Positions 53,870 through 62,021 of a stretch of 64,000 bases of DNA are shown here, in pieces. Position 1 is the first letter of the stretch; each line of letters starts with the position of its first letter. The stretch is from a virus (Duplodnaviria; Caudoviricetes), in IMG/VR virus record IMGVR_UViG_3300042881_004206; one strand, 5' to 3'. The notes beneath the pieces are model-generated. The model searched no databases and was not told the DNA's origin. It was given only the letters and a program-made list of their open reading frames with translations. The position numbers and the translations under genes are program-made.

Positions 53870-54273
53870 TTAATGTAGAAGATTTAGTTGAAGTGACACT
53901 AAATGAACAGGATGATTTTCTAAAAGTACGAGAAACCTTAACACGGATTGGTGTTGCTTCCAAGAAAGAAAAAATTTTATACCAATCTTGCCACATCCTC
54001 CACAAAAGAGGGCAATATTACGTGGTGCATTTTAAGGAATTGTTTGCATTAGACGGAAAACCAACAGATATTACTGAAAGTGATCTTTCTCGCAGAAATG
54101 CAATTGTAAATTTATTGGAAGATTGGGGACTGGTAAAAATTGTCAAAAAAGAAAAGACACAAACACCAGAACCAATTTTTCTCTCACAGATTAAAATCAT
54201 TTCACATAAAGAGAAAAAAGATTGGCAATTAGTACCAAAATATAGTATTGGTAAAAAAGCACAAAAAGATTGA
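53866..54273 (+). CDS. regA: Translational repressor RegA
   Basis: 'DDFLK..ETLTRIG.AS.K...LYQSCHILHK.G.YY.VHFKELF.LDG'. Confidence 0.97.
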   Translation: MINVEDLVEVTLNEQDDFLKVRETLTRIGVASKKEKILYQSCHILHKRGQYYVVHFKELFALDGKPTDITESDLSRRNAIVNLLEDWGLVKIVKKEKTQTPEPIFLSQIKIISHKEKKDWQLVPKYSIGKKAQKD

Positions 54274-54299
54274 CAAATTAATATAAATACTTATATAAT
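54270..54299 (+). promoter_or_regulatory. Nested sigma70 promoter and T4 late promoter upstream of hsp20
   Basis: TTGACA (54270-54275), 18 nt, TATAAT (54294-54299), with a perfect TATAAATA (54282-54289) in the spacer. Confidence 0.8.
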
Positions 54300-54413
54300 C
54301 CTAGTCCCATCGGGATGGGAGCAGCAGTCCGAGGTCAGGCTGCATATAAATTCCTCGGGCCAACGCCTTTTGGGTTGGCATTATTAACTCGCTTATTTAA
54401 GGAGATTTAAATG
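54300..54413 (+). promoter_or_regulatory. Structured 5' UTR of hsp20: hairpin, H-type pseudoknot, hairpin and ROSE-like SD-sequestering hairpin
   Basis: Pairings are TCCCAT/ATGGGA; GCAGC/GCTGC with GTCCGAGG/CCTCGGGC; GCCAAC/GTTGGC; and CTCGCTTA/TAAGGAG with a bulged G. Confidence 0.7.
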
Positions 54414-54854
54414 ACCTCTATTCATAATCTTTTCGATTTTCACAAGTTTGATCCTTTTGCTGTCGGATTCAATGATGTTTTCAAGGACCTACAAGAAATG
54501 TCCAAGAATCTAAAGGCAGTTAGTTATCCTCCATACAATATCAAACAAGTCAAAGAAAACAAGTATGTTATCGAAATGGCTGTTGCTGGTTTTAGCAAGT
54601 CTGATATTGAAATTACTTTGGAAGGTAATAAACTTATCGTTAAGGGTAATACTCAAGAAAATGAAACCGACGACAATTTCATTTTCAAAGGTATTGCAAA
54701 TCGTAATTTTTCCCGTGAATTCAAAATCAATGACAAGATTGAAATTGAAAATGCAGAATTGGCTAACGGTATGTTGAAGATTTGGTTGCAGAATATGATT
54801 AAGGCACAAGACCTAGTGAAAAAGATTCCTTTGGTTTCCAAAGAAGAAAAATAA
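54411..54854 (+). CDS. hsp20: Small heat-shock protein (Hsp20/IbpA family)
   Basis: 'YPPYNI', 'IE.AVAGF.K.DI', 'KGIA.R.F.R.F' and 'A.L.NG.L.I'. Confidence 0.95.
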   Translation: MTSIHNLFDFHKFDPFAVGFNDVFKDLQEMSKNLKAVSYPPYNIKQVKENKYVIEMAVAGFSKSDIEITLEGNKLIVKGNTQENETDDNFIFKGIANRNFSREFKINDKIEIENAELANGMLKIWLQNMIKAQDLVKKIPLVSKEEK

Positions 54855-54884
54855 ATCGGTTATCTTTTAGGTAAATAACCGAAA

Positions 54885-54920
54885 GGGGCTCTTGACAGAG
54901 CCCTTTATTTTTTGTATAAT
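54885..54920 (+). terminator. Terminator hairpin overlapping a sigma70 promoter
   Basis: GGGGCTCT-TGAC-AGAGCCC plus T-rich tail. TTGACA (54892-54897), 17 nt, TATAAT (54915-54920). Confidence 0.75.
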
Positions 54921-54923
54921 ACT

Positions 54924-55112
54924 ATGATGAAAAAACAAAACATTACATTCCGTAAAGTTCGTCCTCGTAATGGTACAGACATTTACTACACCTCACCTTC
55001 TTGGGAAACCAAAGAGGTTGATGGTATAGTTTTTGTCTATGTGATTAAAAATCCTGCCGTGAGAGAAACACCTAAACTCATGCGCAAGGATTCTTTGGAG
55101 AATATTAAATGA
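54924..55112 (+). CDS. Hypothetical small basic protein
   Basis: The ATG at 54924 lies just downstream of the -10; the ORF-track start at 54912 lies within the promoter. Confidence 0.6.
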   Translation: MMKKQNITFRKVRPRNGTDIYYTSPSWETKEVDGIVFVYVIKNPAVRETPKLMRKDSLENIK

Positions 55113-55321
55113 TTTTGAATAAACTGAATGAACAGCTGGCCAATCGCAAAATTTTTGATCCATCAAATAGTGAACATTTAAAATTAGTTCGCATTTTTAT
55201 GCAAGAGAACGCATGGAAAAATACAAGTGCTATGGGCACATGTCCATTTCTACTGGAATGGCCATATTTGTCTGTTCCTGATATGATTAAAGATAAAATT
55301 GTTCGCAATCTTCTCGATTAA
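55109..55321 (+). CDS. Hypothetical protein (70 aa)
   Basis: Coupled ATGA overlap with the upstream gene. Confidence 0.65.
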   Translation: MILNKLNEQLANRKIFDPSNSEHLKLVRIFMQENAWKNTSAMGTCPFLLEWPYLSVPDMIKDKIVRNLLD

Positions 55322-55355
55322 TTTACAAACTATCGTTGTGATTAAAAAATACAAT

Positions 55356-55384
55356 TAGACTTTCTTCATTAATAGTGTTATACT
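55356..55384 (+). promoter_or_regulatory. sigma70-type promoter for rubrerythrin operon
   Basis: TAGACT, 17 nt, TATACT with TGn extension. Confidence 0.7.
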
Positions 55385-55429
55385 ATTATAAGTAATCATT
55401 GGAGTTACTTAACTTTTGAAAGGAAAATC

Positions 55430-55879
55430 ATGTCACTCACGATTAAAAACCTAGAAAGTGCATTGGCTGGAGAGTCAATGGCACATATCAAATATCGTTA
55501 TTTTGCAAAGATTGCTCGTGAAGAAGGATTCGAAGATGTTGCAAAACATTTTGAACATACAGCAGATCAAGAAATTAAACACGCTTGGGGTCATCTGGAG
55601 TTGTTGATTGGTAAACCTTCTACGAAAGAATGTCTTGAAAAAGCAATTGAAGGTGAAACATACGAATTTACGGAGATGTATCCTAAGTTTCATGCTGAAG
55701 CGGTTGCTGAGGGTGATCTAAAAAGTGCCGAAGAAGCAAAAGAACAATTATTCGAATCGCGCCGTCACGCCAAAGAATTCATTGAAATTTTAGAATTGGC
55801 GGAAAAGCGTTTTGCAGCACTCAAGAAAGTGGAAGAAAGACACGCCAATGCTTACAAAAATGTACTAGGAGGTCTATAA
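55430..55879 (+). CDS. Rubrerythrin (ferritin-like di-iron domain only)
   Basis: 'NLE.A.AGES.A...Y.YFA..A..EG', 'QE..HA' and 'EGE.YE...MYP.F'. Confidence 0.92.
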   Translation: MSLTIKNLESALAGESMAHIKYRYFAKIAREEGFEDVAKHFEHTADQEIKHAWGHLELLIGKPSTKECLEKAIEGETYEFTEMYPKFHAEAVAEGDLKSAEEAKEQLFESRRHAKEFIEILELAEKRFAALKKVEERHANAYKNVLGGL

Positions 55880-56019
55880 TGTCTGAACAAAAAGAAAGAA
55901 TCTATGTTTGTATTGTTTGTGGCCACACATTGTCTGAATCTGATTGGTTGAGTTTGCCTGACGAAGTTAATTGTCCAGAATGCGGCGTTTCAAAACAGGA
56001 TTATGTTTTGATGGAGTGA
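55879..56019 (+). CDS. Rubredoxin (46 aa; absent from the ORF track)
   Basis: Manual translation gives MSEQKERIYVCIVCGHTLSESDWLSLPDEVNCPECGVSKQDYVLME*, with two CxxCG motifs, a GGAGG SD and a TAATG overlap with rubrerythrin. Confidence 0.88.
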   Translation: MSEQKERIYVCIVCGHTLSESDWLSLPDEVNCPECGVSKQDYVLME

Positions 56020-56020
56020 T

Positions 56021-56449
56021 ATGAAACAAAAATTTCGTGATGCGTATATGAAAACGGCCGAGGTGTTTGCTGAACTATCCTCGGCTCGCAGACTTCATGT
56101 TGGTGCGATTATTGTTAAAGATGATCGCATCATTTCTATTGGTTATAACGGCATGCCATCTGGTTGGGATAATAATTGTGAAACAGAAGAATTTGGATTA
56201 CATGAAGGATATTATTTAAAAACAAAACCGGAGGTATTACATGCTGAAACTAATGCAATTGCTAAACTGGCAAAATCTAATGAATCTGGTAACCAGGCTA
56301 CTATGTTTATCACTCATTCCCCATGCTTGGAATGCGGTAAACTTATTTACCAAAGTGGTATTAACAGTGTTTATTATCGTAACTCTTATCGTAACGATGA
56401 TGGAATTAATTTCCTGGAGAAAGCAGGAGTGAAAGTAGAAAAACTGTAA
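56021..56449 (+). CDS. cd: dCMP deaminase
   Basis: HAE and PCxxC Zn motifs; 'VGA.IVKD..IIS.GYNG.P.G'. Confidence 0.92.
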   Translation: MKQKFRDAYMKTAEVFAELSSARRLHVGAIIVKDDRIISIGYNGMPSGWDNNCETEEFGLHEGYYLKTKPEVLHAETNAIAKLAKSNESGNQATMFITHSPCLECGKLIYQSGINSVYYRNSYRNDDGINFLEKAGVKVEKL

Positions 56450-56481
56450 GGCAATAAATATAATCTGGATGGGAGGATTTT

Positions 56482-56988
56482 ATGAGAATAAAGGTGTTCA
56501 ATTGTCCAGACAAAGAATTTAAACCTTATATTGAGGATGCAGCACTCTTTTATGCTCAGGAATTAATAACCAATACTAGAATTCGAAATAATTGTTACAC
56601 AACAATACGATTTGATGCTTCATTAAAAGAATATGGTTATGCTTCAATCGAAGAATATAATACTCAGAAGAATCCCAGACAATTTTTAATTGAAATACAT
56701 CCTGGTATAGGTGTAAAAAATATATTATCGACACTTGCTCATGAAATGGTTCATGTGAAACAATATATAAATGGTGAAACTGATGACAAACTATCTATTT
56801 GGAGAGGCAAAAAAATAAATTCCGATGAAGTTGATTATTGGGATCATCCATGGGAATTAGATGCACATGGTCGAGAAGTCGGTTTATTCTACAAATATAG
56901 TGTTAAAAATTGTTTGTGGGAAGTATTTGAAGAATTTAAAAATCCAAACTTACCTATAGTTTCTACACCTATTAAGTGGAAGAAATAA
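56482..56988 (+). CDS. Putative Zn metallopeptidase-like protein
   Basis: HEMVH (HExxH) plus a downstream 'PWE.DA' glutamate. A late promoter ATAAATA lies at 56454-56460. Confidence 0.65.
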   Translation: MRIKVFNCPDKEFKPYIEDAALFYAQELITNTRIRNNCYTTIRFDASLKEYGYASIEEYNTQKNPRQFLIEIHPGIGVKNILSTLAHEMVHVKQYINGETDDKLSIWRGKKINSDEVDYWDHPWELDAHGREVGLFYKYSVKNCLWEVFEEFKNPNLPIVSTPIKWKK

Positions 56989-57065: not shown

Positions 57066-57094
57066 TTGACAACACACAAAACCCGTTGTATACT
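57066..57094 (+). promoter_or_regulatory. sigma70 promoter of tRNA operon
   Basis: TTGACA (57066-57071), 17 nt, TATACT (57089-57094). Confidence 0.88.
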
Positions 57095-57128: not shown

Positions 57129-57218
57129 GGAAACGTGTCCGAGCGGTTTATGGAACTGGTCTTGAAAACCAGCGTGTCAGAAATGGCACCGTGAGTTCGA
57201 ATCTCACCGTTTCCGCCA
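57129..57218 (+). tRNA. tRNA-Ser(TGA)
   Basis: Cloverleaf with long variable arm, loop CT-TGA-AA, G73 and encoded CCA. Confidence 0.95.
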
Positions 57219-57223
57219 TTAAA

Positions 57224-57315
57224 GGTGAGTTGGCTGAGTGGTCGAAAGCAGCAGTTTGCTAAACTGTCCTCCTCTTTAAACGGGAGCATAGGTTCGAATC
57301 CTATACTCACCGCCA
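57224..57315 (+). tRNA. tRNA-Ser(GCT)
   Basis: Cloverleaf, loop TT-GCT-AA, long variable region, CCA. Confidence 0.93.
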
Positions 57316-57322
57316 AATCATC

Positions 57323-57412
57323 CCCGCCATAGCTCATGGAGAGCAGGAGCGCTTATAACGCTTTCGTCCAGATAAGACCCAGGATGTGGTTCGATTCCAC
57401 ATGGCGGGACCA
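57323..57412 (+). tRNA. Atypical tRNA-Ile(TAT) with 21-nt extra arm
   Basis: Acceptor CCCGCCA/TGGCGGG, D-stem GCTC/GAGC with 5-nt loop, anticodon stem GAGCG/CGCTT with loop CT-TAT-AA, T-arm TGTGG-TTCGATT-CCACA, A73, CCA. Confidence 0.75.
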
Positions 57413-57418
57413 AACAAA

Positions 57419-57496
57419 GGGCCGGTAGCTCATGCTGGTTAGAGCAGTGGACTCATAATCCATTGGTGGTCAGTTCGACTCTGACCCGGCCTACCA
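57419..57496 (+). tRNA. tRNA(CAT), probably Ile2 (lysidine type), otherwise Met
   Basis: Loop CT-CAT-AA. The acceptor has C4-G69/C5-G68 as in TilS substrates. Confidence 0.85.
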
Positions 57497-57502
57497 AATT
57501 TT

Positions 57503-57578
57503 GTATGCGTGACCCGAACGGTTAGGGAGCGGATTGCAAATCCGTTTTATGCAGGTTCGATTCCTGTCGCATACTCCA
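57503..57578 (+). tRNA. tRNA-Cys(GCA)
   Basis: Loop TT-GCA-AA, U73, CCA. Confidence 0.93.
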
Positions 57579-57581
57579 ATT

Positions 57582-57657
57582 GCTCGGTTCGTCTATCGGT
57601 TTAGGACGCTAGCCTTTCACGCTGGAAAGACGGGTTCGATTCCCGTACCGAGTGCCA
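57582..57657 (+). tRNA. tRNA-Glu(TTC)
   Basis: Loop CT-TTC-AC, CCA. Confidence 0.93.
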
Positions 57658-57775
57658 TTTGTTTTGCTGATTGTAAGCCATGGGCTTGATCATGCCCGAG
57701 TAACTGTGTACATAATTGCGGTAATTCTAGACTATCCCGCATGAGCACAGCAAATAGTGCAGTCAGCAAAACAAA
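57658..57775 (+). ncRNA. Unassigned 118-nt structured RNA between tRNA-Glu and tRNA-Lys
   Basis: 18-bp terminal helix (TTTGTTTTGCTGATTGTA / TGCAGTCAGCAAAACAAA, with G-U pairs) plus internal stems GGGC/GCCC, CTGTG/CACAG and TGCGG/CCGCA. Confidence 0.7.
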
Positions 57776-57776
57776 T

Positions 57777-57852
57777 GGGACGTTAGCTCAGTTGGTAGAG
57801 CAGTAGACTTTTAATCTATTGGTCGTGGGTTCGAACCCCGCACGTCCTACCA
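57777..57852 (+). tRNA. tRNA-Lys(TTT)
   Basis: Loop CT-TTT-AA, CCA. Confidence 0.95.
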
Positions 57853-57857
57853 AATAA

Positions 57858-57942
57858 GGAGAACGAGAAGCATTGGTGACTTCAGCAGACTGTAAATCTG
57901 TCGCCTCAGGCATACGGGGTTCGAATCCCTGGTTCTCCACCA
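57858..57942 (+). tRNA. tRNA-Tyr(GTA)
   Basis: Loop CT-GTA-AA, long variable arm, CCA. Confidence 0.93.
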
Positions 57943-57978
57943 TGGCCTCATTGAGGCCGCCATATATAATGGTTCAAT

Positions 57979-58053
57979 TCCCTAGTAGCTCAGCGGTAGA
58001 GCAGCAGACTGTTAATCTGTTGGTCCGTGGTTCGATCCCACGCTGGGGAGCCA
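57979..58053 (+). tRNA. tRNA-Asn(GTT)
   Basis: Loop CT-GTT-AA, G73, CCA. Confidence 0.95.
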
Positions 58054-58060
58054 GTTTTTT

Positions 58061-58138
58061 CGGGGTGTAGCACAGCCTGGTTAGTGCGCCTGCTTTGGGA
58101 GCAGGAGGTCGTGAGTTCGAATCCCACCACCCCGACCA
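58061..58138 (+). tRNA. tRNA-Pro(TGG)
   Basis: Loop TT-TGG-GA, C1-G72, CCA. Confidence 0.95.
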
Positions 58139-58147
58139 TATTAAAAA

Positions 58148-58221
58148 GCCCCTGTAGCATGAAGGTCGTGCAGTTGCCTTGTAAGCATCAGGTCCGTGTT
58201 CGATTCACGGTGGGGGCACCA
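58148..58221 (+). tRNA. tRNA-Thr(TGT)
   Basis: Loop CT-TGT-AA, CCA; one mismatch in the anticodon stem. Confidence 0.88.
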
Positions 58222-58227
58222 GACTTT

Positions 58228-58302
58228 GGGCTGCTAGTGATAATGGGAGCACGCCGCCTTTGCACGGCGGAGGTTGGAGTTCGATCCTCCAGCGGTCCAC
58301 CA
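58228..58302 (+). tRNA. tRNA-Ala(TGC)
   Basis: Loop TT-TGC-AC, G3-U70 identity pair, CCA. Confidence 0.93.
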
Positions 58303-58497
58303 AGAACGTGCCGTTTCGTCAACGGCTAGTCTGACCCGGACGATGAGAAGGTAGATGACGTCTACAGGGTGGTTCTGGTCCTACCGAACCAGCGCTGGCA
58401 ATGCGAGAACGGGACCTGTTGGGAAGCGGGTGGAAGGTGCAAGTGATGGCCTGCAGGCTTGATGCACTATAATTACCGCCAGGGTCCGTCAGAGCAT
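58303..58497 (+). ncRNA. ~195-nt highly structured RNA, manA-motif-like
   Basis: GC-rich spacer with many helices (GCCGTT/AACGGC, TCTGAC/GTCAGA, GTAGA/TCTAC, GGTTC/GAACC, GTGCA/TGCAC) and a pseudoknot GGTCC/GGACC. The family name is from recollection only. Confidence 0.7.
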
Positions 58498-58499
58498 AT

Positions 58500-58575
58500 G
58501 GTGATATAGCTCAACTGGTAGAGCACCTCCTTCATACGGAGACGGTTGTAGGCTCGGATCCTACTATCACCACCA
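58500..58575 (+). tRNA. tRNA-Met(CAT), elongator type, divergent T-loop
   Basis: Acceptor GGTGATA/TATCACC, loop TT-CAT-AC, T-loop CTCGGAT. Confidence 0.8.
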
Positions 58576-58583
58576 AATTTCAC

Positions 58584-58658
58584 ACCGACATAGCTCAGCG
58601 GTAGAGCAGCGTCTTGATAAGGCGTTGGTCGGTGGTTCAATCCCACCTGTCGGTACCA
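58584..58658 (+). tRNA. tRNA-Ile(GAT)
   Basis: Loop TT-GAT-AA, CCA. Confidence 0.93.
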
Positions 58659-58682
58659 TCGATTAAATATAAGGAGAATAAT

Positions 58683-58859
58683 ATGTCGGATGGAGGTAAA
58701 GGTTCTTCACCGAGACCGTATAGTGTCTCACATGAAGAATTTTCAAAAAATTGGGACAATATCTTTAAGAAAGATAAAGAACCAAAAAACGAAGAAGTAG
58801 AAGATAAATTAACTAGAAACAATGAAGAAACTCAATATATAAAGAGTATATCTCGCTAG
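58683..58859 (+). CDS. Small conserved phage protein (MSDGGKGS type, 58 aa)
   Basis: AAGGAG SD, then ATG at 58683. 'GGKGS.PRP.SV....F..NWD.IF' pattern. The stop overlaps the 5' end of tRNA-Trp. Confidence 0.7.
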   Translation: MSDGGKGSSPRPYSVSHEEFSKNWDNIFKKDKEPKNEEVEDKLTRNNEETQYIKSISR

Positions 58860-58923
58860 TGTAACGGCAGCATACCGGTCTCCAAAACCGTTGGTCGGGG
58901 TTCGAATCCCTGGCGAGGTGCCA
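58850..58923 (+). tRNA. tRNA-Trp(CCA)
   Basis: Loop CT-CCA-AA, G73, CCA. Confidence 0.9.
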
Positions 58924-58938
58924 ATAGAAAGGTTTATT

Positions 58939-59421
58939 ATGTTAAAACTCAACATTCAAGAGGTTAAGGATTTTATTCAATCACAAAGTCCGGATACTAA
59001 AATTTACCTTGGTGCAGACTCGGAAAGATTTCATATGAATGGTAAATGGTATGCTGATTACACTCTTGCTGTTGTAGTTCATATTGATGGTCGACATGGA
59101 TGTAAGATATTTGGTGAAGTTCATCGTGAGTTGGATTATGATCACAAGAAAAGCAAACCTGCTATGCGATTGATGAATGAAGTTTATAAAGTAGCAGATT
59201 TGTTTCACCAATTAATTGATGTGTTGGAAGATAGACATGTAGAAGTTCACCTGGATATTAATCCAGATGAGCACTATGGTTCTTCTTGCGTGGTGCAACA
59301 AGCAATAGGTTATATCAAAGGTACATGTGATGTTGTACCAATGGTGAAACCAAAAGCATTTGCTGCTTCATATGCAGCAGATAGACTGAAACATGTGATG
59401 GCTATGGCAAAAGTTGTTTAA
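58939..59421 (+). CDS. RNase H-like protein, YkuK/DUF458 type
   Basis: 'IYLG.DS', 'RL..EV' and 'EVHLD.N.....S...A.GY' with 'KP.A.AAS..AD'. The ATG at 58939 follows a GAAAGG SD. Confidence 0.75.
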   Translation: MLKLNIQEVKDFIQSQSPDTKIYLGADSERFHMNGKWYADYTLAVVVHIDGRHGCKIFGEVHRELDYDHKKSKPAMRLMNEVYKVADLFHQLIDVLEDRHVEVHLDINPDEHYGSSCVVQQAIGYIKGTCDVVPMVKPKAFAASYAADRLKHVMAMAKVV

Positions 59422-59422
59422 T

Positions 59423-59497
59423 GGTGTCTATGGTGTAGTGGAAGCATTGCTCTCTGTGAAAGAGTAGGTACGAGGTCGGTACTCGTTAGACACCCCA
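59423..59497 (+). tRNA. tRNA-His(GTG)
   Basis: G-1:C73, loop CT-GTG-AA, divergent T-loop GTCGGTA. Confidence 0.85.
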
Positions 59498-59512
59498 AAA
59501 TAAGGATTAATT

Positions 59513-59752
59513 ATGAAACCACTAGGTAATAATGTTATTGTGAAACGTGCAGAAAAAAATCTGACAACAGGTTCAGGTATTATTTTGCAAAGAAGTGATG
59601 AAGCCGATTATGGTGTCGTAGTGAATATTGGACCTGATGTTGTTGATGTGTCGATTTCAGACAAGGTACTGTTGGATTGGAATAAAGCACTTCAAATCGA
59701 TAAAGAAAATTATAAAATTTCAATTGATAGTATTATTGCTATCATTGAGTAA
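59513..59752 (+). CDS. groES: Co-chaperonin GroES (gp31-like role)
   Basis: 'MKPLGN.VIV', 'T.SGIIL' and 'G.VV..GP.V..V..GD.V'. Confidence 0.88.
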   Translation: MKPLGNNVIVKRAEKNLTTGSGIILQRSDEADYGVVVNIGPDVVDVSISDKVLLDWNKALQIDKENYKISIDSIIAIIE

Positions 59753-59759
59753 ATTTTAA

Positions 59760-59833
59760 GCCTCTTTAGTTTAATGGTAAAACTCCGCCCTTACAAGACG
59801 GTTACGGCAGTTCGATTCTGTCAAGAGGCACCA
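59760..59833 (+). tRNA. tRNA-Val(TAC)
   Basis: Loop CT-TAC-AA, CCA. Confidence 0.9.
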
Positions 59834-59844
59834 GGAGAGATAAA

Positions 59845-60036
59845 ATGTACATAGAAAGCATCCAAAAACTTTTTACCATTTGGCCTGTTTATACTAAAGA
59901 AACGGTATACAAAACATTGGTGGATCCTGTGACGGATAAAAAAGTTGTTGACATTGTGACTTATTATGTGTATAATGACAAAGCAAAAATTGATACGAAT
60001 GAAAACAACAAAACAAACATTGATGTAAAAGTTTAG
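59845..60036 (+). CDS. Hypothetical protein (63 aa)
   Basis: AGGAG SD. The stop codon's last base is G1 of tRNA-Leu. Confidence 0.6.
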   Translation: MYIESIQKLFTIWPVYTKETVYKTLVDPVTDKKVVDIVTYYVYNDKAKIDTNENNKTNIDVKV

Positions 60037-60112
60037 CCCCGGTGACGGAATTGGTATACGTGTTGGTCTTAGAAGCCAAATTTTAGGAGTTCGACTCTCC
60101 TCTGGGGCACCA
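60036..60112 (+). tRNA. tRNA-Leu(TAG) lacking the long variable arm
   Basis: Leu-type D-arm (ACG/CGT, GG..TA), loop CT-TAG-AA, A73; the variable region is only ATTTT. Confidence 0.85.
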
Positions 60113-60118
60113 AATAAA

Positions 60119-60193
60119 CTGGCCGTAGTATAATGGAGAATACAGTTGCCTTCTAAGCAATCAATCCAGGTTCGATTCCTGGCGGCCGGACCA
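60119..60193 (+). tRNA. tRNA-Arg(TCT)
   Basis: Loop CT-TCT-AA, CCA. Confidence 0.9.
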
Positions 60194-60198
60194 GATAT

Positions 60199-60283
60199 GC
60201 GACTGTGGTGAAATAGGTAGACACAAGAGACTTAAAATCTCTCGACTTCGGTCGTGCCGGTTCGATTCCGGCCAGTCGCACCA
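60199..60283 (+). tRNA. tRNA-Leu(TAA)
   Basis: Loop CT-TAA-AA, long variable arm with a UUCG loop, CCA. Confidence 0.95.
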
Positions 60284-60296
60284 TATATAGTAGTAT

Positions 60297-60370
60297 GCGG
60301 GATTAGTTTATCGGTAAAACGAAACCTTGCCAAGGTTTAGTGACCAGTTCGACTCTGGTATCCCGCTCCA
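60297..60370 (+). tRNA. tRNA-Gly(GCC)
   Basis: Loop TT-GCC-AA, U73, CCA. Confidence 0.93.
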
Positions 60371-60388
60371 AATATACCATAATAATTC

Positions 60389-60416
60389 TTGACTCTACAA
60401 ATTTTTCTGTTATAAT
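60389..60416 (+). promoter_or_regulatory. Internal sigma70 promoter for last two tRNA-like genes
   Basis: TTGACT, 16 nt, TATAAT with TGn extension. Confidence 0.7.
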
Positions 60417-60428
60417 TAATTCATAAAT

Positions 60429-60496
60429 GCGGTGTGTTGTAGAACAGAGTGGATGTCCAATTCACTTGCTTGGTGCAAACCCAAGACGCCGCTCCA
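60429..60496 (+). tRNA. Degenerate 68-nt tRNA-Gly(TCC)-like RNA (vestigial D-arm)
   Basis: Acceptor GCGGTGT/ACGCCGC with U73 and CCA. Stem GTGGA/TTCAC with loop TG-TCC-AA; T-like arm CTTGG-TGCAAAC-CCAAG. Confidence 0.6.
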
Positions 60497-60500
60497 AATG

Positions 60501-60575
60501 CGCGGGATGGAGAAGTGGCAACTCGCCAGCCTCATAAGCTGGAGATCGCAGGTTCAAATCCTGCTCCCGCAACCA
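60501..60575 (+). tRNA. tRNA-fMet(CAT)-like
   Basis: C1:A72 mismatch, loop CT-CAT-AA, ACCA end. Confidence 0.85.
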
Positions 60576-61304
60576 CTAAGAATGCAATTTAAATAAACTG
60601 AGTGCTTCCGGTATTCTTGTTTTTGTGTTCTGGCTTCCCAACAATATAACAATTCGTTGACTGATTCCATTTGTCAACATCATAGCAATACATCCACCAG
60701 ATGCTGTTATGAATCCAGTTTTACTTACAATAAATTCATATTGTTGAACCAACGGATTTGTATTGTTGTAGGTTAAAAATTTATTTTTTGTTGTTTGTAT
60801 TTTTATTGATGGCATTTTACTACTTTCAACAATTTCAGGATAATCTTTTGCCATCATTACAATTTTAATCAGTTCTTCAGCTGTACTGATATTCATTATA
60901 CTTAAACCTGTTGGTTCCACGAATCTGGTCTGTTCCAGGCCATGCATACGCATTTTTAGATTCATACTATAGATACACGCAGAAGTTCCACCAGGATAGT
61001 TCTCACATAATGTTACGGCCGCGGAATTACTTGAATTCACCATTGCCAATTGTATCAATTCTTTCCTTGTCAACTTACCTATTTTTTCATTTAGGTCTTG
61101 TTGTGCATCTAAAACAACCATCGATGTGACCAATTTTGTAATACTGGCAATCGACCTCACATCAGTTGTATTTTTACCTTCAATTATTTTGCCATTTTCG
61201 TCTGACACAATCCAGGCTTTTGCGGTAATAGGCTGTGTTGCGTTAACTGGTTCAGTATAAAATGCGGCGAAAACCAACAATAAAGAAATAATTTTGTATA
61301 GCAA
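60576..61304 (-). CDS. D-alanyl-D-alanine carboxypeptidase/endopeptidase (peptidase S11, PBP5/PBP7-like)
   Basis: Signal peptide plus SxxK (SITK), SxN (SSN) and KTG catalytic motifs; TTG start with a GGAG SD. Confidence 0.9.
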   Translation of the reverse strand: MLYKIISLLLVFAAFYTEPVNATQPITAKAWIVSDENGKIIEGKNTTDVRSIASITKLVTSMVVLDAQQDLNEKIGKLTRKELIQLAMVNSSNSAAVTLCENYPGGTSACIYSMNLKMRMHGLEQTRFVEPTGLSIMNISTAEELIKIVMMAKDYPEIVESSKMPSIKIQTTKNKFLTYNNTNPLVQQYEFIVSKTGFITASGGCIAMMLTNGISQRIVILLGSQNTKTRIPEALSLFKLHS

Positions 61305-61336
61305 TTTAAAATCTCCATAGTGTATACTCTACTTAG

Positions 61337-61519
61337 TCACTGTTTTTTTGTGCCCACCAAACATTCATTCCTAAACTTTTCATTAGCTGAAGCGGCTTTT
61401 CCATAATCAGCCTTTGGATTATTTTCTCTCCAATTCTTTTGTTTTTTTTCGACGCATTTTTCTACCGGATCCGTGCAAGCAACAAGTGTAAATGAAAGTA
61501 ATAAGATTAAATATTTCAT
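61337..61519 (-). CDS. Small predicted lipoprotein
   Basis: From the ATG at 61519: MKYLILLLSFTLVAC, a signal peptide II with lipobox LVAC. Confidence 0.7.
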   Translation of the reverse strand: MKYLILLLSFTLVACTDPVEKCVEKKQKNWRENNPKADYGKAASANEKFRNECLVGTKKQ

Positions 61520-61523
61520 AGAT

Positions 61524-62021
61524 TTATCTCCCGCAACTTCCTGTATTATTACAATATTGGATGAGTTCGTAACCACCCCAAAAAAGTCCAACAAGAAATA
61601 AAAGAATTATAGTTATAGAAATAGACATTTCTATTGCTTCTAAAATTTGTCTTTTTCTTTTGGCTGCAAATTCTTTTGCCCTTCTAGCTTCATGTGCAGC
61701 TTCTATGTCCATTGCTGCAGCTCTTGCTTTTATTTTATTCCAAACATCAATTTTTCCAGCTTGCATAAAAAGAAGTTGCAATTCATTTTCAAATTGTTTA
61801 GCTTGATCTAAGGCCATTTCAATTTGAATGGCTGCACCCATACTGGAACTAGTCCCACTTCTCTTAGCTTCTACTGCGGCTTTTGTTGCGGTGCTTTTGG
61901 CATCAAAATATTTACCCAAAACTGGCCCTAACGATGAAACATCGTCTACCGTTTTTGATATTTTTTTGACCAGCGCTACTGCCGACTGAATGCCGGCTAA
62001 TGCTGTAATTGGATCAATCAT
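61524..62021 (-). CDS. Hypothetical membrane protein (MIDPIT type)
   Basis: N-terminal amphipathic helix, coiled coil and a C-terminal TM helix. The 3' end overlaps 61337-61519 region starts. Confidence 0.65.
   Translation of the reverse strand: MIDPITALAGIQSAVALVKKISKTVDDVSSLGPVLGKYFDAKSTATKAAVEAKRSGTSSSMGAAIQIEMALDQAKQFENELQLLFMQAGKIDVWNKIKARAAAMDIEAAHEARRAKEFAAKRKRQILEAIEMSISITIILLFLVGLFWGGYELIQYCNNTGSCGR

Follow-up and report, generated by a model that had tools for sequence, protein, structure and literature searches.

A predicted self-pairing RNA family in the tRNA arrays of uncultured freshwater T4-like phages

What occupies the spacer between two tRNA genes in the array of a T4-like phage from lake water? 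The window that we analyzed is a 64,000-nt stretch of the IMG/VR virus record IMGVR_UViG_3300042881_004206, and a preliminary description of it had proposed that the spacer between tRNA-Glu and tRNA-Lys encodes an unassigned structured RNA whose pairing operates at the RNA level, which would be released by processing of the flanking tRNAs and which resembles the stable non-tRNA RNAs of phage T4. To test this we located the flanking tRNAs, folded the spacer, searched for homologues and asked whether the predicted helices covary.

A folded RNA that is conserved in related phages

ARAGORN predicts a tRNA-Glu(UUC) and a tRNA-Lys(UUU) that leave a spacer of 119 nt (Table 1), which shows that the preliminary coordinates of 57658-57775 omitted only U57776. 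RNAfold gives this spacer a minimum free energy of -44 kcal/mol compared with -26.1 +/- 3.35 kcal/mol for 200 dinucleotide shuffles (z -5.34), none of which folded as well. The fold contains the 18-bp terminal helix with U-G pairs and the GGGC/GCCC, CTGTG/CACAG and TGCGG/CCGCA stems exactly as had been described. However, the inverted repeat is longer than was first recognized, comprising 23 pairs with one mismatch that reach into the CCA end of tRNA-Glu and the first bases of tRNA-Lys.

Table 1. Positions of the array promoter, the flanking tRNAs and the elements of the RNA in the window
Position	Strand	Feature	Basis
57066-57094	+	sigma-70-like promoter (TTGACA-17-TATACT) in front of the tRNA array; no other + strand promoter-like site lies between it and the element	11 of 12 consensus matches; function as the promoter is inferred
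57582-57657	+	tRNA-Glu(UUC) with encoded CCA; its last bases (57652-57657) can pair into the extended closing helix	ARAGORN
57658-57776	+	whole RNA as it would be left by 3' processing of tRNA-Glu and RNase P cleavage at tRNA-Lys (119 nt)	RNAfold; covariance model hit 57649-57784, 106.4 bits
57652-57675 / 57758-57781		inverted repeat, full extent
57658-57675	+	P1 5' strand (18 nt inside the spacer; the helix continues to 57652 in the precursor)	fold, covariation
57676-57678	+	J1/2, AGC; with the preceding GUA this is the invariant GUAAGC	conservation
57679-57700	+	P2 hairpin: stem 57679-57685 / 57694-57700, loop L2 UUGAUCAU at 57686-57693 (contains the palindrome UGAUCA)	fold, covariation
57701-57703	+	J2/3, UAA (start of the invariant UAACU)	conservation
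57704-57708	+	P3 5' strand CUGUG, pairs with 57746-57750	fold, covariation
57709-57716	+	5' side of the asymmetric internal loop between P3 and P4 (UACAUAAU)
57717-57741	+	P4 hairpin: stem UGCGG 57717-57721 / CCGCA 57737-57741, 15-nt apical loop L4 at 57722-57736	fold, covariation
57726-57731	+	self-complementary core UCUAGA of L4, proposed kissing-loop dimerisation site	palindrome and covariation analysis
57742-57745	+	3' side of the internal loop, UGAG (UGA is invariant in the family)	conservation
57746-57750	+	P3 3' strand CACAG	fold, covariation
57751-57757	+	J3/1, CAAAUAG (inside the invariant AGCAAAUAGUGC)	conservation
57758-57781	+	P1 3' strand; 57758-57775 pairs inside the spacer, 57776-57781 can pair with the 3' end of tRNA-Glu in the precursor	fold
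57777-57852	+	tRNA-Lys(UUU); RNase P cleavage at its 5' end would create the 3' end of the RNA	ARAGORN; the cleavage is inferred

In order to find homologues we performed two scans of IMG/VR, which together identified more than 160 viral contigs carrying the element. The pattern GTTTTGCTGA-N75-105-TCAGCAAAAC hits 98 loci, of which 95 are true homologues. In 95 of 95 and 66 of 66 copies the element lies within a tRNA array and on the same strand as the neighboring tRNAs, with 45 + 25 copies located directly 3' of tRNA-Glu(UUC) and 22 directly 5' of it. Five IMG/VR genomes that are 95-100% complete hold one copy each. A blastn search of the element against 50,697 GenBank phage records gave only chance matches of 19-24 nt, a 601-nt stretch matched tRNAs only, and the family covariance model found nothing in the five cultured Kyanoviridae that were searched (Melnitz, P-HM2, S-CRM01, HTVC008M and Bellamy). 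Of 20 pattern hits in prokaryote genomes 19 are chance, with the one true hit being a 538-bp contig binned into a Gemmobacter MAG that is probably phage DNA. The 205-nt neighbor RNA of related loci has no similarity to this window.

We next examined covariation on 83 distinct sequences. In this alignment 94.7% of cells are paired, compared with 77.0% in shuffles, and 31 of 38 pairs have changes on both sides. The covariation score is 0.485 as contrasted with 0.159 for shuffles (0 of 500 reach it) and 0.05-0.08 for slid partners. Because the aligned sequences are related the shuffle controls overstate significance, and the slid-partner control and the number of distinct pair types are the sounder measures. 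All four helices covary, and an inserted U in the 5' strand of P1 always comes with an inserted A in the 3' strand. The strand of the RNA is fixed by U-G pairs, which would be C-A on the opposite strand and which occur in 81 of 83 sequences at one P1 pair and frequently in P2, as well as by the covariance model, which scores 46-153 bits forward but at most 42 bits reverse. Conservation is concentrated at the three-way junction, where the strands GUAAGC, UAACU and AGCAAAUAGUGC are invariant and where the 27 of 135 consensus positions that are at least 97% identical cluster.

Two details of the preliminary description are not confirmed. An alternative AAGCC/GGCTT stem had been suggested, but GGCUU is absent from most homologues while AAGCC is the invariant junction strand. 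A loop-loop pairing of ACTAT with ATAGT is likewise not supported, as ACUAU in the apical loop is not conserved (the nearest relative has ACAAU and the main family has CAAUU) while AUAGU never varies. An all-against-all column scan for additional tertiary contacts gave only the model pairs and a palindrome in the apical loop, which had not been noticed earlier. In the internal loop the 3' strand always has GA (in UUGAG), whereas the 5' strand has GA at the corresponding place only in about 10% of members (UAUAGAAA), with most having UA (UAYAUAAA).

To determine whether the element belongs to a known family we performed four scans with Rfam 15, whose families include hammerhead, twister, pistol, hatchet, HDV-like, YrlA, pRNA, GOLLD, ROOL, manA and EGFOA. 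There was no match over the element at gathering thresholds, nor at E<=10 with permissive filters in the window or in 12 further members, the only overlaps being mir-19-like hairpin noise at 25 bits (E about 0.5). There was no YrlA hit (RF02553 or RF00019) on the element; weak YrlA hits of 18-20 bits lie on tRNA pairs elsewhere, and no T-loop motif occurs in the consensus. A Ro60/TROVE gene (PF05731) is absent from the five 95-100% complete genomes of the clade while control genomes responded, although a host Rsr cannot be excluded.

A long closing helix and an apical loop that is always self-complementary

P1 is held at a median of 22 continuous bp, mostly 20-26, despite unrelated sequences. 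When one mismatch is allowed the median is 23 and 103 of 120 members have at least 20 pairs. The outermost pairs covary even where the 5' partner is the CCA of the tRNA. A divergent subfamily has a P1 of only 12-13 bp, indicating that a helix of two turns is not universally required.

The apical loop L4 shows a different kind of constraint. All 49 distinct loops contain a perfect palindrome of at least 6 nt (up to 10 nt) and 36 contain one of at least 8 nt, whereas shuffles give 24% and 6.5%, respectively. There are 23 different palindromes at a fixed place in the loop, and the palindrome pairs covary (UA 24, GC 23, AU 16 and CG 3 at one pair). Furthermore, all 7 kinds of central tetranucleotide are self-complementary, which an intramolecular hairpin would not require. 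This suggests that two copies of the RNA pair with each other through L4. We note that the palindrome in the window is only 6 nt, with a nearest-neighbor self-duplex energy of -5.2 kcal/mol that is the second-weakest in the family (range -4.3 to -21.1 kcal/mol), such that dimerisation of this particular copy is less certain than for the 8-10-nt GC-rich versions (-14 to -21 kcal/mol). We also asked whether a second RNA with the same palindrome lies nearby, as a heterodimer would predict, but 15 of 74 loci have another copy of the 8-mer compared with 10.5 expected, so there is no enrichment.

The element is present in RNA libraries, although DNA carry-over is not excluded and assembled contigs cannot show ends, strand or level. 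An 88-nt contig of RNA run X18 covers 57684-57771, and contigs of runs X16, X17 and X18, which derive from three studies, cover 57748 and read T there, the majority base of the family at that position. In four RNA runs the coding flanks (54000-56900 and 60675-62000) had almost no cover, which we do not count as evidence of anything. The depth over tRNA genes probably includes tRNAs of other organisms, and joints and loose ends that look like chimeric tRNA contigs from other organisms were ignored.

How the RNA may be made and what it may do

Taken together, we believe that the element is a gene for a small structured non-coding RNA of about 112-135 nt, belonging to a previously undescribed family carried once per genome in the tRNA arrays of an uncultured clade of freshwater T4-like (Kyanoviridae-related) phages. 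We propose that it is transcribed with the tRNAs from the array promoter, folds at once into the three-way junction and is cut out by the enzymes that mature the neighboring tRNAs, with RNase P acting at the downstream tRNA and 3' processing at the upstream one. This agrees with the earlier inference of release by tRNA processing, as the helix ends abut the tRNA ends. RNase III may also cut inside the two-turn closing helix. The product has paired ends and should therefore be stable, and two molecules would join head to head through L4 in a kissing-loop homodimer. The invariant junction nucleotides would form the functional site, most likely a binding surface for a host or phage protein or for a small ligand that is presented twice in the dimer. 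We give this reading as a whole a probability of roughly 0.55. That the element is a real structured RNA gene is close to certain. Its release as a discrete RNA is likely and self-association through L4 is more probable than not, but both are inferred from sequence in the absence of experiments or read-level data. Involvement of RNase III is only a possibility; no RNase III gene occurs in the five complete genomes of the clade and a host enzyme would be needed. Action in trans on a protein or ligand is equally tentative, and no partner protein was identified.

The alternative that survives best, though we regard it as unlikely, is that the element acts purely in cis as an RNase III site or folding insulator separating the upstream from the downstream tRNAs, with the excised piece being a by-product without a function of its own. 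P1 is indeed held at about 22-24 bp, the minimal two-turn RNase III substrate, whatever its sequence. In addition, covariation of outer pairs that use the CCA of tRNA-Glu points to a role at the precursor stage, the element always lies between tRNAs in the copies examined, and T4 species 1 RNA appears to be cut by RNase III. Long helices formed by sequences on either side of a functional RNA in a polycistronic stable-RNA transcript, such as the leader-trailer helices of rRNA operons, are classic RNase III substrates (PMC11404451), but here the enclosed RNA is only about 75-90 nt and the helix ends coincide with tRNA ends, so RNase P and tRNA 3' processing alone could release it. However, a processing stalk needs no conserved interior, yet the junction is nearly invariant, P2, P3 and P4 covary, and L4 is kept self-complementary through all of its variants. 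Only one spacer out of about 20 in each array carries the element, and one subfamily keeps the core with a short P1.

Also unlikely, but not excluded, is that the RNA forms rings, chains or cages rather than simple dimers, using L4 together with a second and weaker self-complementary sequence of 4-6 nt in L2. Such a building block of roughly 115 nt would be the smallest natural relative-in-kind of the GOLLD, ROOL and manA assemblies, with its junction serving as a repeated binding or catalytic site during infection. L2 loops are enriched for palindromes, with at least 4 nt in 44 of 50 distinct hairpins compared with 37% in shuffles and at least 6 nt in 17 of 50 compared with 7%, and the types change (ACGU, UGAUCA, UGUACA, AACGUU, UUGCAA). 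In contrast, several L2 variants have no palindrome (AAUCGUAAC, AUUGCUAA and the CGCAA type), most L2 palindromes are only 4 nt, and the types are few and related so the statistics are weak. L2 could instead dock on the invariant UGA of the internal loop, an idea that shows no covariation either way because UCA and UGA hardly vary.

A new self-cleaving ribozyme or ligand-binding aptamer acting in cis on the tRNA precursor is doubtful. Conservation is concentrated in the junction strands as in hammerhead, purine or TPP junctions, a J3/1 (7 nt) longer than J2/3 (3 nt) would probably make this a family C junction in the Lescoute-Westhof scheme like those RNAs, and cleavage would make sense in a polycistronic tRNA transcript. 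Nevertheless, no ribozyme or riboswitch family of Rfam 15 matched in 13 members at E<=10, and there is no expression platform, as the next tRNA starts within 0-3 nt of the end of the closing helix in the copies examined (1 nt after the in-spacer helix in the window) with no terminator-like site there. The flanking tRNA enzymes already suffice for release, and neither activity explains the palindromic loop. Finally, although long terminal inverted repeats and a central palindrome are also what a MITE or a dimeric DNA-binding site looks like, a DNA-level feature (a MITE, a recombination or protein-binding palindrome, or a decayed or intron-bearing tRNA gene) is contradicted by the single copy in each complete genome and in the window, the covarying internal helices with U-G pairs, a palindrome that changes sequence freely as a protein-recognised site would not, and the lack of a tRNA signal from ARAGORN or RF00005 over the element.

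Comparison with other phage RNAs and self-associating RNAs

The T4 stable RNAs species 1 and 2 (rnaC, 139 nt; rnaD, 119 nt) are also small non-tRNA RNAs encoded inside a tRNA cluster, on the tRNA strand and directly abutting tRNAs, and their function is still unknown (PMC9697503). The analogy drawn in the preliminary description holds only for position. With filters off, the family model scores at most 9.2 bits over T4 68000-75000 and nothing on rnaC or rnaD. rnaC folds with a tRNA-like T arm while rnaD has no significant fold (z -0.8), and neither shows a 22-bp closing helix, this junction or a palindromic apical loop.

GOLLD (RF02032), ROOL (RF03087) and the manA motif are RNAs of phages or phage-related loci with unknown function that self-associate through evolutionarily conserved kissing loops, with GOLLD and ROOL often encoded near tRNA islands (PMC12286853; bioRxiv 10.64898/2026.07.01.735769). 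GOLLD lies in the same tRNA array as this RNA in one related contig (L023, positions 311-775). GOLLD and ROOL are 400-800+ nt with many pseudoknots and form 8- to 14-mer cages, whereas this RNA is about 115 nt with four helices and one clear self-complementary loop, which predicts a dimer.

The phi29-family packaging RNA (pRNA, RF00044) has a functional core of about 120 nt, a long helix formed by its paired ends, a three-way junction and hairpin loops that make intermolecular Watson-Crick contacts between identical molecules (PMC4201828). pRNA loops are complementary to each other (right loop to left loop) and close a ring, while here L4 is complementary to itself and no L2-L4 complementarity or covariation was seen. 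In addition, pRNA is confined to phi29-like podophages, where it docks on the portal, and T4-type packaging motors need no RNA. The L4 pattern is also reminiscent of the HIV-1 dimerisation initiation site and other palindromic kissing loops, where a stretch of 6 nt or more flanked by unpaired purines generally drifts in sequence but stays palindromic. The palindrome here is usually 8-10 nt in a 15-18-nt loop, is part of a small, presumably stable RNA rather than of a genome and has no link to packaging.

The family is abundant in lake metagenomes from many studies and absent from the cultured phages searched, and it therefore also marks a gap in current RNA family databases that would be useful to fill for annotating viral contigs. 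Phage tRNA arrays are turning out to be nurseries of enigmatic structured RNAs, as T4 RNA C and D have been unexplained for 50 years and GOLLD and ROOL were shown only in 2025 to be self-assembling cages. To these the family adds a small and very well-defined member with a loop whose only conserved property is that it is self-complementary. At about 115 nt it is easy to synthesize, mutate and image, and so could be a tractable model for why phages make self-associating RNAs beside their tRNAs and what such RNAs bind.

The tRNA array spacer and its homologues

The window carries an array of 22 tRNA genes, all on the + strand, and belongs to a T4-like phage, as a clamp loader and a dCMP deaminase lie just upstream and the clamp loader is 61-63% identical to those of Kyanoviridae such as P-HM2, Bellamy and Melnitz. 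The 119-nt spacer between tRNA-Glu(UUC) and tRNA-Lys(UUU) folds to -44 kcal/mol, with a z of -5.3 against dinucleotide shuffles, whereas the opposite strand folds less well (-38.5 kcal/mol). This fold contains the 18-bp closing helix and the three inner stems of the preliminary description, although the inverted repeat extends beyond the limits proposed there and takes in the CCA end of tRNA-Glu and the first bases of tRNA-Lys. No Rfam 15 family matches the spacer, even at E<=10. The array also holds a G+C-rich 197-nt spacer without an Rfam match at E<=10, and three small ORFs that sit between tRNA genes (see table).

In order to find homologues, we performed an exact-match scan of IMG/VR with the two halves of the closing helix. 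This returned 98 loci, of which 95 are clearly homologous and vary in their interior. A second scan used only the conserved junction strings (GTAAGC...TAACT...AGCAWAYAGTRC). A covariance model built from 66 sequences (R1) finds one hit per locus at 46-153 bits, while the reverse strand of the same sites scores at most 42 bits. In five IMG/VR genomes of 157-180 kb that CheckV rates 95-100% complete there is exactly one copy each. In contrast, the family was not found in 50,697 GenBank phage records searched by BLAST, nor in five cultured Kyanoviridae searched with the model. It was also not found in the species-representative prokaryote genomes, apart from one 538-bp contig (JAUREX010000311.1) binned into a Gemmobacter MAG. 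This contig consists of tRNA genes plus this RNA (100 bits) and is most likely mis-binned phage DNA rather than a bacterial copy. The DNA runs in which the stretch occurs are lake-water and freshwater metagenomes, with fourteen runs from ten studies containing at least half of its words.

Coordinates of features in the window and in related contigs (L numbers; X numbers are RNA-library runs)
Feature	Location	Coordinates	Strand	Remarks
Promoter-like site	window	57066-57094		in front of the first tRNA
tRNA array	window	57129-60575	+	22 tRNA genes
tRNA-Glu(UUC)	window	ends at 57657	+
tRNA-Lys(UUU)	window	starts at 57777	+
Inverted repeat	window	57652-57675 / 57758-57781
Loop L2 of P2	window	57686-57693
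Internal loop between P3 and P4	window	57709-57716 / 57742-57745
Contig of run X18	window	57684-57771		88 nt
Position covered by contigs of X16, X17 and X18	window	57748		contigs read T
Spacer between tRNA-Ala and tRNA-Met	window	58303-58499		197 nt, G+C-rich
Contigs of X15 and X16 over that spacer	window	58279-58380, 58382-58488, 58326-58430
ORF of 176 aa	window	58891-59421		matches PHROG 11311 (unknown function, E 5e-55)
ORF of 79 aa	window	59513-59752		GroES-like co-chaperonin (PHROG 3188)
ORF of 63 aa	window	59845-60036		unmatched
GOLLD RNA (RF02032)	L023	311-775	-	189 bits, E 7e-52
Second conserved element	L023	5539-5752	-	also in L002, L008, L016, L022, L025, L026, L047, L055, L066, L069, L073, L075, L095
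Divergent subfamily, example	L111	2382-2495		other members in L105, L140, L142, L147
Long-arm tRNAs just under the tRNA-Sec threshold	L061; L182 (the 538-bp contig); L075	917-1001; 384-463; 1480-1569		and others

Predicted structure and the palindromic loop

On the model-based alignment of 83 distinct sequences, 94.7% of pair cells are standard pairs, compared with 77% after shuffling partners and 29-44% after sliding them, and 31 of 38 pairs show changes on both sides. The covariation score is 0.485, against 0.159 for shuffles (0 of 500 reach it) and 0.05-0.08 for slid partners. A MAFFT alignment that was not fitted to a structure gives the same picture, with 95.7% paired and 19 pairs with double changes, and RNAalifold recovers the helices on its own. 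U-G pairs, which would be C-A on the other strand, are fixed or frequent in P1 and P2 (81 of 83 sequences at one P1 pair). Together with the asymmetry of the model scores, this puts the RNA on the tRNA strand.

In the closing helix P1, 19 of 22 pairs covary. Its length is a median of 22 uninterrupted pairs, or 23 with one mismatch, and is mostly 20-26, and an extra U in its 5' strand is always matched by an extra A in the 3' strand. P2 is a hairpin of 6-8 bp with an 8-10-nt loop. P3 is 5 bp (CUAUG/CAUAG, changing to CUGCG/CGUAG and others) and P4 is 4-6 bp with a 15-18-nt apical loop, L4, the two helices being separated by an asymmetric internal loop (5' UAYAUAAA, 3' UUGAG). This internal loop has an invariant UGA on its 3' strand and matches the kink-turn consensus exactly (3-nt bulge, tandem G-A/A-G) only in the roughly 10% of members with GA on the 5' strand (UAUAGAAA), while most members have U where the critical G should be. 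The junction strands are essentially invariant: J1/2 is AGC (within GUAAGC), J2/3 is UAA (within UAACU) and J3/1 is CAAAUAG (within AGCAAAUAGUGC). Overall, 27 of 135 consensus positions are at least 97% identical.

Loop L4 has no conserved sequence except its flanks (UA... and ...AAYU). Nevertheless, every one of 49 distinct loops contains, at the same place, a perfect palindrome of 6 nt (13 loops), 8 nt (32) or 10 nt (4), whereas shuffled loops reach at least 6 nt in 24% and at least 8 nt in 6.5% of trials. There are 23 different palindromes, among them GUGGCCAC, GCUGCAGC, CCAGCUGG, CUAGCUAG, CCGGCCGG, GCGGCCGC, ACUCGAGU, CUUGCAAG and AUCCGGAU, with UCUAGA in the window, and the seven kinds of central tetranucleotide are all self-complementary. 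A local hairpin could use at most the outer two or three pairs and would put no constraint on the central four bases, while a protein-recognised DNA site would keep its sequence. What is selected is therefore self-complementarity itself, which is the signature of pairing between two identical molecules. Calculated self-duplex energies run from -4.3 to -21.1 kcal/mol, and the window's copy, at -5.2, is at the weak end. The same 8-mer is not enriched elsewhere in the loci (15 of 74 against 10.5 expected), which speaks for a homodimer rather than a second partner RNA.

Genomic context, inferred biogenesis and RNA libraries

All 161 homologues examined lie in tRNA arrays on the tRNA strand. In the first set, 45 of 95 follow tRNA-Glu(UUC) directly, 22 of 95 precede it directly, and most others follow it at about 215-260 nt. 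In the second set, 45 of 66 have tRNA-Glu upstream, 25 directly adjacent and 20 within 400 nt. In at least 14 related contigs, the 214-362 nt (mostly 214-272) between tRNA-Glu and this RNA are filled by a second conserved, ORF-free element of about 205 nt with the shared motifs CAUUGGGUUACCAAC, GUAAUGUGGA, AUCGGCAGACG..CCGUGAGAAG and CACCCCAAUG. It too is closed by a long terminal helix (MFE -65 kcal/mol, z -3.2), and it has no Rfam match at gathering thresholds and no similarity to anything in this window. Several long-arm tRNAs of related arrays score just under the gathering threshold of tRNA-Sec (for example 46.1 against 47 bits).

Where tRNA-Glu is adjacent, its CCA forms the outermost pairs of P1 with a downstream UGG. 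Where it is not adjacent, other bases keep those pairs, with columns 7/168 and 8/167 showing CG, UA, GC, AU and GU. The full helix length therefore seems to matter in the precursor. The 3' end of P1 abuts the next tRNA, so RNase P would create the 3' end of the RNA, and the only strong promoter-like site upstream lies in front of the first tRNA. From this we infer co-transcription and release by the tRNA-processing enzymes. A helix of two turns is also the textbook minimal RNase III substrate, but as no RNase III gene was found in the five near-complete genomes of the clade, a host enzyme would have to act, and we regard this step as a hypothesis. A divergent subfamily lies directly after tRNA-Ala instead of tRNA-Glu and has a closing helix of only 12-13 bp and a longer P4 (CUUCAG/CUGAAG), while keeping the junction strings and a UCUAGA, UUCUAGAA or UCGCGA palindrome. 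Its short P1 is compatible with a mature form that keeps only the inner half of P1.

To look for traces of the RNA, we compared the window with assembled contigs of RNA libraries. Such contigs do not prove transcription and say nothing about ends or strand. The X18 contig over the element shows five differences from the window, and the T that contigs from three runs of three studies (X16, X17 and X18) read at 57748 is the family's majority base. Thus relatives of this RNA are present in freshwater RNA libraries. The spacer between tRNA-Ala and tRNA-Met is likewise covered by contigs of X15 and X16.

Relation to known RNAs and possible function

The RNA is not T4 rnaC/rnaD. It is not a Y RNA, as there is no RF02553 match, no tRNA-like module and no Ro60 gene in five genomes, and it is not a pRNA, as its loop is complementary to itself and not to the other loop. 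It is single-copy and so not a MITE, it is not a tRNA, and it is not a terminator, since no U-tract follows the helix.

Among alternative readings, a pure processing element is unlikely but survives best. It is slightly less likely that the RNA is a building block of larger RNA-only assemblies. The hint for this is that L2 is also enriched for palindromes whose type changes between members (ACGU, UGAUCA, UGUACA, AACGUU, UUGCAA, UGCA), with at least 4 nt in 44 of 50 distinct hairpins against 37% in shuffles and at least 6 nt in 17 of 50 against 7%. However, several variants lack one, and the enrichment could reflect either a second self-pairing site or chance plus relatedness. The wider setting nevertheless makes self-assembly a timely idea. 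GOLLD and ROOL are phage RNAs often encoded near tRNA islands that form cages through kissing loops (PMC12286853), and manA and EGFOA, both under 200 nt, form 60-mers, trimers and dimers (bioRxiv 10.64898/2026.07.01.735769). Additionally, in contig L023 a GOLLD RNA lies in the same tRNA array and on the same strand as the new RNA, about 4.7 kb away. A new ribozyme or aptamer is the least likely of the three, no ribozyme or riboswitch being recognisable in the Rfam 15 searches.

Taken together, these data confirm the preliminary description of an unassigned structured RNA in this spacer and support its interpretation. Structured RNAs are already known from phage tRNA arrays, and the one described here is a new family among them. 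Its existence and structure are very well supported, and self-association has a strong sequence-level case. The evidence supports a small RNA with a highly constrained three-way junction, which we infer to be stable and self-pairing. By analogy with other RNAs that show junction-centred conservation, the junction is the likely working site. It could be a protein-binding surface, a ligand pocket or a catalytic centre, which the dimer would present twice, and we favour, though only at modest odds, a trans-acting, protein-binding or scaffolding role.
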